Shown: positions 3,212-22,310 of the stretch, in pieces
How positions within the stretch are numbered: the stretch's first letter is position 1
Layout: each line of letters opens with the position of its first letter
From: Candidatus Kuenenia stuttgartensis
Lineage (GTDB): Bacteria > Planctomycetota > Brocadiia > Brocadiales > Brocadiaceae
DNA length: 32,000 nt
Assembly (NCBI RefSeq): GCF_900232105.1
Contig: NZ_LT934425.1
Coordinates: forward strand, 3,630,001-3,662,000
Reading direction: 5' to 3'
The notes under the pieces: generated by a model
What the model was told of the DNA's origin: nothing
Databases searched by the model: none
Seen by the model: only the letters and a program-made list of their open reading frames with translations
Translations under genes and position numbers: made by a program

Positions 3212-4137
3212 TAGTTATAGGATTTATCGCATTAAGTTTTACCCGCAATACCGGTATTGCGATAAAAACCGAATTGGCGTTTACTGAGCGTATAAAAAAT
3301 GTTTATGCTGCCAGAGGGGCATGTATTTATGCGATAAAAATGCTATTGCTCCCGGAAAAACAGGTTAAAAAAACAGAGGATAATAAAAAAAAGCCGCGCG
3401 GGAAAGAGAAGAAGGGACAAAGTGTACGCCAATGGGTACCAAGCAATAAACCGTATTCTGTATTGATAGGGGATAGGAATTGTGATGTGCATATTTACGA
3501 TGAAAGCGGCAAAATAAACATAAATAAGATTACTGATGAGACGAAACAGGGTTTTATTAAATTCCTTTTAGCCCTGAAGATCGAAGAACATGCAGCAGAA
3601 ATTATAACGGATTCTATTTTGGATTGGGTGGATGAGGATGATTTGCACCATGTAAATGGAGCGGAAAAAAATTACTACAGCTCATTACCTGAACCTTACG
3701 AACCGAAAAATGGGGCATTTGAGATAATTGAAGAGTTAACATTAGTAAAGGGCGTTACCCCGCAAGTATTTGAATTATTACGGGAGCATGTAACCATCTA
3801 TGGAGCCGGCAAAATTAATGTTAATTTTGCTTCTAAGGAAGTGTTGCTTTCCGTGCCCGACATTTCACCGGAAATAGTTGATGCGATTATTCAATATAGA
3901 GATGAAAACGGGAAAATAGAAAAATTCGGAGATTTAAAGGAATTATTCAGAGGGTATGGGGTCATAGGCAAATCCTTTCAGGAAGTGACGAAATATTTAA
4001 CCGTGTACGATTCAAGTTTTTTGACAATTAATGCTCTTTCGCACCCTGAAAAATCAGAAAACTCTTATGGCTCTTACAAGATGATTGTGCGGAAAGGCAG
4101 CGGTGATTTTACTATTATTGCGGTATATCCTGATTAA
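3085..4137 (+). CDS. gspK: GspK-like type II secretion minor pseudopilin
   Basis: Has an N-terminal TM helix (GYVLVFSLWTIVVIGFIALSF) and a GspK-like core (NYYSSLPEPYEPKNGAFEIIEELTLVKGVTPQVFELLREHVTIYG, INVNFASKEVLLSVPDISPEIVDAII). The only canonical start before the TM helix is ATG 3085, which gives a 127-nt overlap with the upstream gene. Confidence 0.75.
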   Translation: MEGKNYRENPEGNKTNGNKKWGRTNAYNSNYGYVLVFSLWTIVVIGFIALSFTRNTGIAIKTELAFTERIKNVYAARGACIYAIKMLLLPEKQVKKTEDNKKKPRGKEKKGQSVRQWVPSNKPYSVLIGDRNCDVHIYDESGKININKITDETKQGFIKFLLALKIEEHAAEIITDSILDWVDEDDLHHVNGAEKNYYSSLPEPYEPKNGAFEIIEELTLVKGVTPQVFELLREHVTIYGAGKINVNFASKEVLLSVPDISPEIVDAIIQYRDENGKIEKFGDLKELFRGYGVIGKSFQEVTKYLTVYDSSFLTINALSHPEKSENSYGSYKMIVRKGSGDFTIIAVYPD

Positions 4138-4349: not shown

Positions 4350-5618
4350 ATGAGTAGGATTCCGTTTGTTGGTGTCTTTTCCCCCAGTGGCACTGGTTTA
4401 TCTTTGCACGGGGATGATCTTGTTATTACGTTTGTTTCCAGGAAACTAATCAAATTATCGTATGAAACGTTTGTAGTAAAAGATTTTTTAATTAAAGATA
4501 GCCAGCAATTAAAACCCATTTTAGTGCAACAAAAGAAATTTGCCGGAGAGATAATCCTCTCCGTGCCCAGAGAATTATGTATTATCAGAGAAATAGAATT
4601 TCCCTATGCAAATATTAAAGAATTACGGGAAGCGTTATCATATCAGTTAGATAGTTTTATTCCTTTTAATAACGAAGATGTTTATTTTGATATTCACTTG
4701 CTTTCCCGCAACCGGCACAATTCAAAGGTACTCATTGTTGCGGTAAAAAAAGAGGCATTGGATGATATATTGTTGCGTTTGAAAGCTCTCGAAATAATGC
4801 CATCTCGGGTTATTATCACACCCTTCGCATTTATTCCTCTCATAGCAGACAAACGAGGCGCTGTTGCCGTTGTTAATAAAAATAAAAAGGATTACTGCTA
4901 CAGCCTGTATGAAAATAGTTTCCTGAGGTCATCGTCGATTGTGAAGAATCTGGATGAGTTGACAAAACAGGTAAAGGCGAATGCTCCCGGAGCAGTTTTT
5001 TATATAAATAACGGTGATACAATTTTGCCGGAAGACTATTCTGTTCAAACAAAACGGATGGATGAGAATGCAGAATCATATGGCGCAGCGCTTTATGGCG
5101 TTTCTGGTTATCCGTGTAATATAAGCTTAATTAAGTTAAAGAGAAAACAACGCAATCCTCAAATATCGGCAATGTGTTTTTTGACAGGCTTCTTAATATT
5201 GTTTATTTTTTTGATACCCTATATTCAGAAAATGAATAACCTTACAAGAATAAAAACCGTGGATTCAATAATTAAATCATTAAAAAAAGAGATAAAGATT
5301 GTTGAAAATACAAAAGAGAGGATGGAGTTGTTGGAGAATACGGTGATTAATGTTGACAAAATCAGCGAAAAATACATTCCAAGAATTGATATTATCCTGG
5401 AATTAGCGAGAATTTTGCCGAACGACGCCTGGGCTAAAACCATTAAAATAGATAATAATCTGTTTGAGATAGAGGGTGATGCGGTATCTTCCACCCATTT
5501 AATACCCATTCTGGAAAATTCACCTCTTTTATCAGCGATTGGTTTAGCATCTCCTGTTACCAAAACGCAGAGCGGGAGGGAGAAATTCCGGATAAAGGGT
5601 AAGGTTGAAAGGCAGTAG
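4350..5618 (+). CDS. GspL / PilM-PilN-like inner-membrane assembly protein (cytoplasmic domain + 1 TM + periplasmic PilN-like domain)
   Basis: Start moved to ATG 4350 (MSRIPFVGVF...) because the track start at 4305 lies inside intergenic hairpins. The central TM helix is ISAMCFLTGFLILFIFLIPYI. The C-terminal part (LPNDAWAKTIKIDNNLFEIEGDAVSSTHLIPILENSP) resembles PilN/GspL periplasmic domains. Position after gspK supports the call. Confidence 0.6.
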   Translation: MSRIPFVGVFSPSGTGLSLHGDDLVITFVSRKLIKLSYETFVVKDFLIKDSQQLKPILVQQKKFAGEIILSVPRELCIIREIEFPYANIKELREALSYQLDSFIPFNNEDVYFDIHLLSRNRHNSKVLIVAVKKEALDDILLRLKALEIMPSRVIITPFAFIPLIADKRGAVAVVNKNKKDYCYSLYENSFLRSSSIVKNLDELTKQVKANAPGAVFYINNGDTILPEDYSVQTKRMDENAESYGAALYGVSGYPCNISLIKLKRKQRNPQISAMCFLTGFLILFIFLIPYIQKMNNLTRIKTVDSIIKSLKKEIKIVENTKERMELLENTVINVDKISEKYIPRIDIILELARILPNDAWAKTIKIDNNLFEIEGDAVSSTHLIPILENSPLLSAIGLASPVTKTQSGREKFRIKGKVERQ

Positions 5619-10080: not shown

Positions 10081-10314
10081 CGGAAAAGAGGGGGACTTTA
10101 ATTCCTGGGCTAAATCCATGCGCAAAGTGGACAGTTTAGCGCAGGAATTATGTATGGTGTCTCCTGAATTACCTGCGGTTGGATTCTTTACTATTAAATC
10201 AATATGTGAAGTGTATAAAAAAAACTTATAATACCCTTCACCTCCCGACACTCTACTTCTCTTTTTACGTCATTGTTATGCAAAAAACAAACTGCCAATT
10301 AGGTGAGCCATAAG

Positions 10315-11175
10315 ATGAAACTACTGTTGAAATATATGGATAGAATGCCTAAAATAATAATCGCAGCAAGCAGCTCTTTATTGGTTGTTTTTCTTGGCAT
10401 TATAGACTATGCCTCAGGTTCCGAGATATCGTTTTCAATTTTTTATCTGTTGCCTGTGCTAATGGCAACGTGGTTCGCCAAGCGAAGATATGGAGTCGTA
10501 ATCTCTGTTTTCAGTGCAATAACATGGTATCTGGCAGACATCAATTCTGGTCATGCATATTCGCATTATATAATTCCTGTCTGGAACTCGATTATGCGGT
10601 TAGGGTTCTTCTTAATTGTTACCTCCTCCATTGACAAAGTCAGAAATCTGTTAAATAAGGAAAAATCTATGGCGCGAAACGATTTTTTAACGGGAGTGGC
10701 TAATAGGCGTTTTTTTTATGAAATAGCTACAAAAGAAATAGAACGAATTGCAAGATTTATTCACCCATTGTCACTTGCTTATATTGATATCGATAATTTT
10801 AAGCAGGTAAATGATACCCTTGGTCACAGTGCCGGTGATAAACTCTTGCAAGTAGTTGCTGGCACAATAAAAGAAAACATTCGATCAATTGATACAGTAT
10901 CGAGACTCGGAGGTGATGAATTTGCACTTCTAATGCCAGAAACAAATGCTCAAAGTGCTATTACAGCTTTAAATAAATTACGACATGCTCTTTTAGATAT
11001 GGTGCATGAAAATAATTGGCCGGTGACTTTTAGCATAGGCCTTGTCACATGCTCCGAATCTTGCAAATTGAATGAATTAATAAAAGAAGCTGATAATCTC
11101 ATGTACACAATAAAAGCGAGCGGAAAAAACAGAATTGAAAATAAAGTCCACTCATTTAATAAAACAAGTGCATAA
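10315..11175 (+). CDS. Membrane-anchored diguanylate cyclase (GGDEF domain with RxxD I-site)
   Basis: C-terminal GGDEF domain: DFLTGVANRRFF, IDNFKQVNDTLGHSAGD, RLGGDEFALL. RSID lies 5 residues upstream of GGDEF, the canonical I-site position. The N-terminal ~110 aa contain several TM helices. The track start is GTG 10303; ATG 10315 is preferred. Confidence 0.9.
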   Translation: MKLLLKYMDRMPKIIIAASSSLLVVFLGIIDYASGSEISFSIFYLLPVLMATWFAKRRYGVVISVFSAITWYLADINSGHAYSHYIIPVWNSIMRLGFFLIVTSSIDKVRNLLNKEKSMARNDFLTGVANRRFFYEIATKEIERIARFIHPLSLAYIDIDNFKQVNDTLGHSAGDKLLQVVAGTIKENIRSIDTVSRLGGDEFALLMPETNAQSAITALNKLRHALLDMVHENNWPVTFSIGLVTCSESCKLNELIKEADNLMYTIKASGKNRIENKVHSFNKTSA

Positions 11176-11880: not shown

Positions 11881-11914
11881 GTTAAAGTCTTTTTAAAAAG
11901 ACTAAAGAGTTACA
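11881..11914. repeat. Short palindrome related to family-A terminal repeats
   Basis: GTTAAAGTCTTTTTAAAAAGACTAAAGAGTTACA. Its right half resembles the A-family right end (AAAAAACTAAAGTGTTACA). Confidence 0.4.
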
Positions 11915-11956
11915 AATATTTTAAAATATTTTTTTTGCCAAACCGCGATAATTTTC

Positions 11957-11985
11957 TTGACTAATTAATGTATTTTGGTAAAAGT
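11957..11985 (+). promoter_or_regulatory. Promoter candidate for riboswitch transcript (TTGACT, extended -10 TGGTAAAAG)
   Basis: TTGACT at 11957-11962. After a 16-nt spacer comes TAAAAG at 11979-11984, preceded by TGG (TGn extended -10). It ends just upstream of the aptamer. Confidence 0.45.
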
Positions 11986-12078
11986 GTGCATACAAAGGCA
12001 AACCAATCGTGAGGTTGGGACGCAAAGCCATGGGTCTTATTTTTTGGAAAGAATGCCAGGTTGCCACCTATAATGGTG
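11986..12078 (+). promoter_or_regulatory. c-di-GMP class I (GEMM-I) riboswitch aptamer
   Basis: ACAAAGGCAAACCAATCGTGAGGTTGGGACGCAAAGCCATGGG matches the conserved GEMM-I core (GGCAAACC ... GGGACGCAAAGCC), as in the V. cholerae Vc2 aptamer. The hairpin CCAATC-GTGA-GGTTGG has a GNRA tetraloop at the expected position. A second helix region ends ...GCCAGGTTGCC. Confidence 0.8.
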
Positions 12079-12226
12079 TAAAAGCTGTTTATTGATCAGG
12101 CGCTGAGCCGGTAAGTATTTTGTTTGTAAAAGGTTTAGCTATAAACTTACGGTTGAATCCCTTTTATAAAATGTGATGCTTTATTGATTAGGTTCAAGAT
12201 TTCAATAGGCTTTTAAGATAACCCAA

Positions 12227-12270
12227 AACCCAAGGCATATGTGGCATATTGTCTTGGGTTTTTTTATTTT
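12227..12270 (+). terminator. Intrinsic terminator (probable riboswitch expression platform)
   Basis: AACCCAAGGCATATG-TGG-CATATTGTCTTGGGTT followed by TTTTTTATTTT. It lies between the aptamer and the RBS/ATG of the downstream gene. Confidence 0.75.
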
Positions 12271-12327
12271 ACAATGGGTATAAAATTGTTGTTTTTGTTA
12301 GAGAAATTTTTTTTGGAAAGGAGTAAA

Positions 12328-13461
12328 ATGATGAAAAGGAAATTAGTTTTAAGTGTATGGACGATTGTATTTACAGGTATTTATTTGTCGTTTGTAGTGG
12401 AGGGGGCTGGAGCGGATACCCTTTATAAAACCAGCCTTACCGTCAGTGATTCAAGCGCTTTTGATGGAGACAAATTAGATGCAAGTGTTGAAATAAACAA
12501 AAATGGAAAAGTAAAATTATCAATATCCAATTTAATACATCTTGATACACTACTGTATGCCAATAAAACATGTGCCTTGGTAATTGAAACAGAAGTGAAC
12601 GATATCGCAAAGCCATATGAATTTCCATTTGAGATTGAAGAGGGAATTGCGTTGGAGGATATGGACCTTGTTCTTCAATCAGGCGATAAAGTGGAGATTG
12701 TAAGCGTCGTTATTAACGAAAAGGCTTCCCCTACAGGAACCCCAACGCCTTCTCCCATTGCCGTTGCTTCTCCTTTGCCGGCAGGTTCTCCAACTCCTGT
12801 TGCAACGGCATCTCCAATTGCAACCACCTCGCCCGTTGTGACGCCTACCGCAACTGTTGCGCCATACTCAACCTCTGTTTTGGAAGTTTCGGCAGAGATA
12901 TCCGGGGATGATGTTGAATTGCTGGTTCCGGGAGGTTTGATTACTGATGCCGAAATAACGCCTACACCAACGTCATTTGCCACGCCTGCGGCAACGCCAA
13001 CAGAACCTTCTGCAACTCCCACATCAACACCAGTCGAGACGCCTTCTGTAATAGAGGCATATGTGAGCTTCCAGTCAAAGACGATAAATCTTAATAGTAA
13101 CGGTAAGTTTATTGCCAATATAAAACTACCTTCCACGCATAATATCGAAGATATAGTATGTGAAACAGTAGTGTGTGAAGGTGCTGTTGCAATTGATTGT
13201 GATGAAAAAAAGAATAAACTTAAGGTCAAGTTTAATATAAGTGATTTAGAAGTTGGTTTAGATTTAAAAACAAGTGAATCACAAAGTGTTGAATTTACCA
13301 TTACAGGGGAATTATCAGATGGTACAAAATTCGAGGGAAGCGATACCGTTAAGGTGAAGGGAAGTAAGAAGGGAAAAAACGATGACAACGACGATGAAGA
13401 CGAAGACGATGATGATGGCGATAAAGGCAAGGACAAGGGAAAAGGGAAAAATCGACGCTAA
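12328..13461 (+). CDS. Secreted protein of unknown function with Pro/Thr-rich linkers and a highly charged D/E/K C-terminal tail
   Basis: RBS GGAAAGGAG (12315-12323) and ATG 12328. The signal peptide is MMKRKLVLSVWTIVFTGIYLSFVVEGAGA. PT-rich linkers include SPTGTPTPSPIAVASPLPAGSPTPVATASP and TPTPTSFATPAATPTEPSATPTSTPVETP. A C-terminal beta-rich module is KTINLNSNGKFIANIKLP...VEFTITGELSDGTKFEGSDTVKVKG. The tail is NDDNDDEDEDDDDGDKGKDKGKGKNRR. The track start 12241 lies inside the terminator. Confidence 0.75.
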   Translation: MMKRKLVLSVWTIVFTGIYLSFVVEGAGADTLYKTSLTVSDSSAFDGDKLDASVEINKNGKVKLSISNLIHLDTLLYANKTCALVIETEVNDIAKPYEFPFEIEEGIALEDMDLVLQSGDKVEIVSVVINEKASPTGTPTPSPIAVASPLPAGSPTPVATASPIATTSPVVTPTATVAPYSTSVLEVSAEISGDDVELLVPGGLITDAEITPTPTSFATPAATPTEPSATPTSTPVETPSVIEAYVSFQSKTINLNSNGKFIANIKLPSTHNIEDIVCETVVCEGAVAIDCDEKKNKLKVKFNISDLEVGLDLKTSESQSVEFTITGELSDGTKFEGSDTVKVKGSKKGKNDDNDDEDEDDDDGDKGKDKGKGKNRR

Positions 13462-13698: not shown

Positions 13699-13890
13699 AT
13701 GGATAATACGTTGACAAATCTTGCGCAAAGCATGTCGAATAACGTGGTTATGGCAAAACAAGCCATGGAGTCAATGAAAACGGAAGGCGCTACAATTTTA
13801 AAGCTTATTGGGGATTCTGAAAGTGTGCGGACAGATAAGGGAGCAACTAATCCTGATGGTGTTGGTAAAAATGTTGACGTTTTCGCCTAG
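13699..13890 (+). CDS. Small YjfB-like (putative motility protein family) protein
   Basis: Strong RBS (AGGAGGTGAAAAGGAG). The 63-aa product MDNTLTNLAQSMSNNVVMAKQAMESMKTEGATILKLI...GKNVDVFA resembles, from memory, the YjfB-like pattern: an N-terminal MD..., a central VMKKAMD-like segment, and a C-terminal G.N.D..A. Confidence 0.6.
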   Translation: MDNTLTNLAQSMSNNVVMAKQAMESMKTEGATILKLIGDSESVRTDKGATNPDGVGKNVDVFA

Positions 13891-21912: not shown

Positions 21913-22310
21913 GCATGCAATATTAAACTTAAGCAACATTTCTGTCAAGAGAATCAAATGAACATCCGAAAACAAAAACCCCCTGATTGTTTTCAGACAA
22001 AAGTATTCCATTTTAAAAAAACTATTATTTGTAAAACTTTTTTTCGCTTGCCAGAAAATATATTTATTGCTAACATGAATTTACTTTTAAGGGCTCTGCC
22101 ATGTACGTGGATAGAGGTATAATTTTTAAGACCTATAACAATAATTTGGGATCCCGTCTTTGTTAGTGGCGTATATAGTCTCCAGTGAGAAAAATACAAA
22201 GCTATCATTGGGAATACCACCGTAAAATACGGGTCATTTAAAAAAAACTCACACGGCATTGCGGTGGAGCCTTTATGCCTATCAATACAACTGAAACAAC
22301 AAAAATAGAC

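Follow-up and report, generated by a model that had tools for sequence, protein, structure and literature searches.

Organization of the locus

The 32,000-nt stretch of DNA analyzed here, referred to as the window, comes from the anammox planctomycete Candidatus Kuenenia stuttgartiensis (contig NZ_LT934425.1, positions 3,630,001 to 3,662,000). A gene for a secreted protein of 377 amino acids in this stretch is preceded by a leader whose 5' part is almost certainly an aptamer of the class I cyclic di-GMP (c-di-GMP-I, GEMM-I) riboswitches. An earlier reading of the sequence (the original prediction) had proposed a promoter, an aptamer, an intrinsic terminator, a ribosome-binding site (RBS) and an ATG at this locus, and all were found in place when the sequence was read directly (Table 1). 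The riboswitch unit is real: promoter, aptamer, terminator and RBS stay together in the Kuenenia lineages, including those with other upstream genes. The RNA class is well known and widespread, and the window provides a new member in an anammox planctomycete, with a variant closing element and a variant expression platform. A literature search turned up no report of riboswitches in anammox bacteria, Kuenenia included, and none of permuted c-di-GMP-I aptamers.

The six-frame list of open reading frames (ORFs) begins the ORF at GTG 12241, inside the terminator stem. The original prediction preferred the RBS and ATG further downstream, in agreement with the public gene calls, which use 12328 as the start of the 377-aa product. 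Identical copies of the protein are encoded on NCBI CP049055.1 and in other assemblies.

Table 1. Features of the riboswitch locus, in window coordinates. CM, covariance model; MFE, minimum free energy.
Feature	Position	Strand	Basis and remarks
-35 box TTGACT	11957-11962	+	Direct sequence reading
Extended -10-like element TGG-TAAAAG (TGGTAAAAG)	11976-11984	+	Direct sequence reading; 16-nt spacer from -35
c-di-GMP-I class aptamer	11988-12069	+	Rfam cmscan, full-length model match
Conserved block GGCAAACC	11997-12004	+	Sequence
P2	12003-12018	+	GUGA tetraloop 12009-12012
Conserved block GGGACGCAAAGCC	12017-12029	+	Sequence
Equivalents of Vc2 G20; G21-C22/G45-C46; C44; A47; G83; C92	G11997; 11998-99/12022-23; C12021; A12024; G12055; C12064		CM alignment
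P3	12026-12062	+	Short; no tetraloop-receptor extension
Local hairpin CACC-UAUAAU-GGUG	12065-12078	+	Directly 3' of C12064 (C92 equivalent), in place of the P1 3' strand
Spacer domain, long irregular hairpin (138 nt)	12079-12216	+	MFE folds
Predicted switching sequence	12219-12236	+	MFE of transcripts ending 5' of the terminator 3' strand
Intrinsic terminator	12227-12270	+	Stem 12227-12241/12245-12260, bulged U12250, loop UGG
RBS GGAAAGGAG	12315-12323	+	Sequence; kept in L005 and L135
Start codon ATG	12328-12330	+	Sequence; public gene call
Regulated gene, 377-aa secreted protein	12328-13461	+	Translation, public gene calls

Conservation of the leader

The whole leader is kept in three Kuenenia lineages, represented by the loci L005, L132/L129 and L135. 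L005 belongs to a second Kuenenia species, in which the orthologous protein is 70% identical and the upstream genes are entirely different. A metagenome scan added the close relative L132 and the third lineage, L135, with the promoter-aptamer-terminator unit. Between the Kuenenia species, similarity starts about 20 nt 5' of the -35 box and extends through the aptamer, spacer, terminator and RBS. In more distant orthologues (L006, L008; about 40-46% identity) the leader is plain and lacks an aptamer, indicating that the riboswitch was recruited to the gene within the Kuenenia lineage.

The L129 copy, on a metagenome contig, is incomplete. From about position 795 its leader breaks inside the terminator after CATATTGT and resumes in the middle of the coding region. 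The 3' half of the terminator, the RBS and the part of the gene for the N-terminal third are thus missing, and the copy represents either a deletion variant or an assembly artefact.

Aptamer core and ligand

A cmscan search of the whole window against Rfam gave a single riboswitch match, scoring 61.5 bits where the gathering score is 59; its E value was 2.2e-12 over the 32-kb window and 3.8e-14 over the local region. The CM search suggested with the original prediction was therefore positive, with a full-length match to the clan. A second model of this clan, CL00126, reached its own gathering score on the window and was masked by clan competition; this was presumably RF01051 (gathering score 35). 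The two conserved GEMM-I blocks on which the original prediction was founded, GGCAAACC and GGGACGCAAAGCC, do flank the hairpin CCAATC-GTGA-GGTTGG with its GNRA tetraloop, the whole spanning 11997-12029.

In the Vc2 aptamer of Vibrio cholerae the ligand is contacted by G20, A47 and C92, with A47 intercalated between the two c-di-GMP guanines, and C44 and G83 form an interhelical Watson-Crick pair (PMC4744006). Alignment to the CM consensus places G11997, A12024 and C12064 at the three contact positions, and the contact triad of the window is thus canonical. The equivalents of C44 and G83 are both there in terms of nucleotide presence, the latter in the P3 bulge.

In the modelled secondary structure (P2, the G-C/C-G clamp, P3 and a hairpin 3' of the core), each of the 24 pairs forms, with 98.2% of cells paired across seven related sequences, compared with 30-54% for slid-register controls. 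In L131 and L134, a compensatory change from G-C to C-G is found at 11998/12023, and two P2 pairs also covary. The element is assigned with near certainty to the class I aptamers. Given its canonical pocket, c-di-GMP is the most likely ligand, and we regard this identification as probable.

The c-di-GMP-I-GGC label

The top Rfam label of the window aptamer is c-di-GMP-I-GGC (RF03167), a model of the same clan as RF01051. The original prediction had named RF01051; the best-scoring label reflects the short-P3 scaffold. Taken literally, the label would mean that the window RNA is a GGC variant with an altered pocket and a ligand other than c-di-GMP. In the GGC variant, a G presumably replaces the intercalating A47. 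This reading of the variant-defining position is supported by a comparison of the two CM consensus sequences, whose sole core difference (ACGC-G-AA in RF03167, ACGC-A-AA in RF01051) falls on the Vc2 A47 position.

The scores are in favor of the variant, as RF03167 is the best-scoring clan member for the window, for L005 (59.8 bits) and for L129 (61.0 bits). However, it is contradicted at the defining nucleotide itself: the window has A12024, which is scored as a mismatch to the RF03167 consensus G. The same holds for other aptamers with this label, since A was also present in 21 of 21 other RF03167-labelled genomic aptamers examined. A genome-wide pattern scan in which the A47 position could be either A or G gave more than 120 loci from many phyla. 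The fetched loci held 128 pattern matches, about 123 of which came from the genome scan, and every one had A. Rfam was run on 20 of the scanned loci. All 17 short-P3 aptamers tested were labelled RF03167, at 60-78 bits, despite their A; the RF01051 label was given only to aptamers with a tetraloop-receptor P3 (70-90 bits). The second clan model passing its gathering score on the window also argues against an altered pocket, and a GGC variant is very improbable here.

What the window shares with RF03167 is the short-P3 scaffold, hence the best score; where it differs is the defining G. As A is kept in all the RF03167-labelled short-P3 aptamers examined, the label tracks the scaffold and, judged by sequence, is a scaffold artefact that says nothing of the pocket. 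It falls on many short-P3 aptamers with canonical pockets, and automated annotation may thus report variants of altered specificity where none exist.

The closing element

The original prediction also described the layout of the aptamer as that of Vc2. This held for the conserved blocks, the GNRA-capped P2 and the contact and interhelical nucleotides, but not for the closing helix P1, which is absent; a local hairpin stands directly 3' in its place. The P3 helix likewise differs from the RF01051 consensus, being short and lacking its tetraloop-receptor extension (CUAAgg...uAuGa). The P1 pairs are marked as non-canonical in the CM alignments of the window, L005 and L129, and the closing signature (5' CG(A) ... 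3' C92-CG(AA)) does not occur in the window. The CG/CG signature is found in nearly all of about 105 unselected class I aptamers, whereas the Kuenenia type has neither strand. P1 is not included in the RF01051 consensus structure and its absence therefore leaves class membership intact.

Conventional closing partners were sought and discarded. CACC could pair only with a GGUG strand, and the 60 nt upstream contain none in the window, L005 or L135. A register pairing GUG 11986-88 with CAC 12065-67 was rejected because it provides only three pairs, needs a 9-nt junction J1/2 and is absent in L005 and L135. The UAAAAG 3' of the hairpin was considered as a permuted J1/2-G20 segment and also rejected: the CU that follows is not complementary to G12022-C12023, and covariation links the 5' GGC to its partner.

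The hairpin itself is retained with variation. It reads CACCU-GUAA-AGGUG in L005 and L135, CACC-UUAAC-GGUG in L133, CACCU-AAA-AGGUG in L131 and CACCUC-AAAA-GGGGUG in L134, so that a fifth or sixth pair and changed loops are seen in L005, L135, L131 and L134, and a changed loop in L133. Its four core pairs were set by the search pattern in three lineages, which counts against this evidence: independent support comes only from the extra pairs and the varying loops.

The hairpin probably lies stacked beneath the pocket, where it would stand in constitutively for P1. The architecture without P1 and with a 3' hairpin recurs in the Brocadiaceae before at least two different genes, and also in an unrelated AT-rich lineage (L131/L134). 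We tentatively propose, as a possibility that falls short of an even chance, that it represents a distinct c-di-GMP-I sub-architecture: the ligand-gated P1 would be replaced by a constitutive hairpin 3' of C92 (a permuted P1), the transcript would start within J1/2, and ligand binding would be read out by strand exchange in P3. If true, this design, with P3 as the switching helix, would widen the known couplings between class I aptamers and their platforms.

Further class I aptamers were seen at other loci. L129 carries a second c-di-GMP-I aptamer (215-302, -; 70.6 bits) that is absent from the window. It is divergent, lies about 230 nt upstream of the orthologous leader and has a normal CCCGA...GCCGAU closing helix; the 5' strand of its terminator is the aptamer's own P3-3'/P1-3' segment, a wiring of the ON type. 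In Ca. Brocadia sp. DTUAMX2, tandem class I aptamers (L092 3709-3793 and 3826-3902, -; 71 and 73 bits), each carrying A at the A47 equivalent, precede a secreted protein of more than 1241 aa without a Pfam match.

The L131 (175-268, -) and L134 (8342-8438, -) aptamers are on AT-rich contigs of another organism and have the form GCC...GGGACGG, a compensatory flip of G21-C46. They have the 3' CACC...GGUG hairpin and no terminator. The L134 aptamer is upstream of a signal-peptide DUF2202 (ferritin-like) protein, and the L131 contig stops near the beginning of an ORF that looks similar and also has a signal peptide. Downstream is a conserved AATGGCTAAAGA box with partial complementarity to the P3 5' strand.

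Putative promoter and predicted transcription start

The promoter-like site expected directly upstream of the aptamer is present, and its -35 box is kept in three lineages (TTGACT in the window and in L005/L135, TTGACA in L129). The -10 region reads TGGTAAAAG in the window, TGGTATAGA in L005 and TGGTATAGG in L135. Just 5' of the -35 box, CGATAATTTTC is invariant in the window, L129 and L005 and differs by one or two bases in L132 and L135. A consensus promoter scanner gave no call at 11957-11984, where position 6 of the -10 element is not T. From its sequence, this is a conserved and plausible promoter, and transcription is predicted to start at about 11989-11993, leaving only about 5-11 nt 5' of the G20 equivalent. 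The scanner did report TGGAAA-18-TATAAT (12045-12074, +). This candidate was rejected, as its TATAAT forms the loop of the 3' hairpin, where L005 and L135 have GTAA instead; the match is probably due to chance.

Self-complementary sequence is found at the predicted start: GTGTGCATAC in the window (11984-11993), the perfect palindrome GTATGCATAC in L129 (530-539) and (AT)n in L005 (about 2655-2670). Two perfect AT-rich palindromes, AGTCTTTTTAAAAAGACT and AAATATTTTAAAATATTT, are located just 5' of the promoter (11886-11903 and 11914-11931) and are mostly kept in L129 and L132. They could be operator or terminator elements.

Expression platform

The strong terminator and T-run of the original prediction were recovered about 160 nt 3' of the aptamer. 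The stem has a calculated stability of -17.1 kcal/mol with one bulged U (ViennaRNA) and is followed by a U-run (12259-12265) and then A UUUU. A simple terminator scanner missed it because the stem is bulged. The terminator is kept in L005, L132 and L135, with one compensatory change from A-U to G-C.

Two segments of the leader are complementary to P3. UAACC (12219-12223) can pair with GGUUG (12059-12063) at the 3' end of P3, and AAAACCCAAGGC (12225-12236), which enters the terminator 5' strand, with the P3 5' strand GCCAUGGGUCUU (12027-12038); together these pairings make up an antiterminator. In all five leaders folded (window, L132, L005, L135 and L133), the MFE structure of the transcript before the terminator 3' strand is made is this P3-strand antiterminator, better by 3.8-9.9 kcal/mol than the fold in which the aptamer is enforced. 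In the full-length leaders, the combination of aptamer and terminator is the MFE structure or within 2.5 kcal/mol of it. RNAduplex directs the terminator 5' strand to GCCAUGGGUCUU in all five, with shuffle p values for the duplex energy of 0.017 (window), 0.044 (L132), 0.002 (L005), <0.001 (L135) and 0.002 (L133). RNAalifold also recovers the GGUU/AACC pairing.

L133 is a paralogue-type leader that combines the same aptamer and hairpin with a spacer that is unrelated and only about 45 nt long; the gene downstream is also another one, for a PAS-domain protein. The 5' strand of its terminator, AAGACCCAUGGC, is an exact 12/12 reverse complement of the P3 5' strand, and its own terminator stem is imperfect. 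In silico, the platform is therefore of the terminator type, with a mutually exclusive antiterminator that involves aptamer nucleotides.

Between the aptamer and the switching sequence lies the 138-nt spacer domain, closed by pairing of UAAAAGCU (12079-12086) with GGCUUUUA (12208-12215). The original prediction had suggested an antiterminator or a second structured element here. The second structured element was found, the spacer folding as a long hairpin that shows some covariation. The antiterminator lies outside it, between the P3 5' strand and the terminator 5' strand. RNAalifold of four leaders gave an invariant spacer closing helix and compensatory changes in the inner stem, which holds four of the five compensatory pairs of the whole leader (from only four sequences). 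Identity of the spacer across the three Kuenenia lineages is about 60-70%; that of the aptamer core is nearly complete. The spacer matched no Rfam family, with nothing credible at E values up to 10, and the idea of a second aptamer was discarded for this reason. It is not a repeat or mobile element, as no further copy occurs in the window or the 135 loci, and a 21-nt match in L006 is due to chance, lying inside a coding region. In the folds, the hairpin appears to set the terminator 5' strand beside P3. It may lengthen the time window for ligand binding, and, conserved as it is in the Kuenenia orthologues, it could serve as a kinetic delay line or a second input.

The downstream protein

The 377-aa protein has a signal peptide, two beta-sandwich domains, Pro/Thr-rich (disordered) linkers and an acidic/basic tail. 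AlphaFold2 models the domains confidently at residues 30-131 and 240-345, with a predicted local distance difference test (pLDDT) score of 82-94. A Pfam search gave no match, and Foldseek searches of the PDB gave only generic immunoglobulin-like (Ig-like), macroglobulin and integrin matches. The 57 homologues are all hypothetical proteins and all come from anammox planctomycetes (Candidatus Kuenenia, Brocadia, and metagenome-assembled genomes of other Brocadiaceae/Planctomycetes). The protein is restricted to the Brocadiaceae and probably belongs to the cell surface or the matrix.

The unit would give anammox bacteria an RNA-level receptor for c-di-GMP, hence part of a c-di-GMP regulon, and names a concrete target in a Brocadiaceae-specific secreted protein with two beta-sandwich domains. 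The aggregation and granulation of anammox bacteria are of practical importance, and their genetics are inaccessible.

A 63-aa ORF downstream of this gene (13699-13890, +) has a weak match to YjfB_motility (E 0.002, below cut-off); gene calls include it in L129 and in every K. stuttgartiensis copy.

Proposed mode of regulation

The arrangement of aptamer, antiterminator and terminator predicts an OFF switch that operates through P3 strand exchange. The promoter would drive a leader RNA of about 275 nt with the canonical-pocket aptamer at its 5' end. The decision point would be the terminator, with the spacer hairpin setting the distant strands side by side. In the ligand-free RNA, the emerging terminator 5' strand would invade P3 to form the antiterminator, and transcription would read through into the gene. 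With c-di-GMP bound, P3 would be locked, the terminator would form and transcription would stop, such that high c-di-GMP switches the gene off. The direction is taken from folding, and we hold it with moderate confidence.

This mechanism has the logic of the OFF riboswitches of Firmicutes typified by Cd1 in the flgB leader of Clostridioides difficile. In these, c-di-GMP reportedly causes premature termination through an aptamer, antiterminator and intrinsic terminator, as is predicted for the window. The switching strand of Cd1 is said to overlap the 3' side of the closing helix; in the window, it is instead the P3 5' strand, about 190 nt away and bridged by the 138-nt hairpin. The terminator platform also sets the window apart from Vc2.

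Several points weigh against this interpretation. At equilibrium, the terminator is favored in the full-length RNA whether ligand is bound or not. As a local hairpin, P3 folds when transcription is still about 190 nt short of its competitor, and strand invasion would have to be possible kinetically. Because the P3 5' strand does not vary among the sequences, covariation gives the antiterminator no support, and its case depends on recurrence and shuffle statistics. The -10 element does not end in the conserved T, and the start of transcription is a predicted one. Finally, surface and matrix proteins are usually induced by c-di-GMP, and a secreted Ig-like protein might be expected to follow the same rule rather than to be repressed; the second riboswitch of the close relative L129 (215-302, -) is wired in the opposite direction.

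The last two points are also the arguments for an ON switch, in which the ligand would prevent termination or relieve another block, and the secreted protein would be induced at high c-di-GMP. The clear ON wiring of the L129 riboswitch means that ON designs exist in this lineage. However, the terminator in the window is separate from the folded aptamer and compatible with it, no structure was found in which the bound aptamer sequesters a terminator strand, and the sole significant alternative partner of the terminator 5' strand is P3, which the ligand should protect. An ON switch is accordingly considered unlikely.

It may also be asked whether the leader switches at all. An aptamer without P1 might no longer transduce binding, in which case the terminator would act as a constitutive attenuator, or the leader of about 275 nt as a stable small RNA or c-di-GMP sponge. 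The missing helix is normally the switching element, the terminator is part of the full-length MFE structure regardless of ligand, and the Bc1 riboswitch of Bacillus thuringiensis, with a long platform, shows no response in vivo (PMC11218506). Against such a relic, the aptamer core has been held nearly invariant across three Kuenenia lineages while the spacer diverged, the pocket and tertiary nucleotides are intact, and the aptamer, 3' hairpin and P3-complementary terminator recur before a different gene in L133. These observations point to selection on a working switch, and loss of function is improbable, more so than an ON switch.

Bc1 also offers a comparison for the platform, as it has two terminators 28 bp apart and exerts dual control of transcription and translation (PMC11218506). 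It resembles the window in joining a class I aptamer to an unusually long structured platform with rho-independent termination (PMC11218506). The window differs in having one terminator and a single long spacer hairpin, and there is no sequence relationship between the two.

Neighbouring genes and other RNA elements

A GGDEF diguanylate cyclase gene is encoded about 800 nt upstream of the riboswitch (10303-11175, +; Pfam E 2e-41). It is unlinked in the other Kuenenia species, where ATP sulfurylase is upstream (L005). Other K. stuttgartiensis assemblies differ as well: the gene is split in L004, and in L003 a region containing a DDE transposase fragment takes its place.

Two further candidate RNAs were noted. 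In the Brocadia sp. locus L008, a nearly identical element of about 90 nt, consisting of a hairpin and a T-run, occurs twice (4020-4108 and 5323-5410, +); both copies give sub-threshold matches to MicX (31-33 bits against a gathering score of 75). The window itself encodes a 6S/SsrS RNA at 22090-22271 (+), a full-length match to Rfam RF00013 at 55.8 bits against a gathering score of 46.4.

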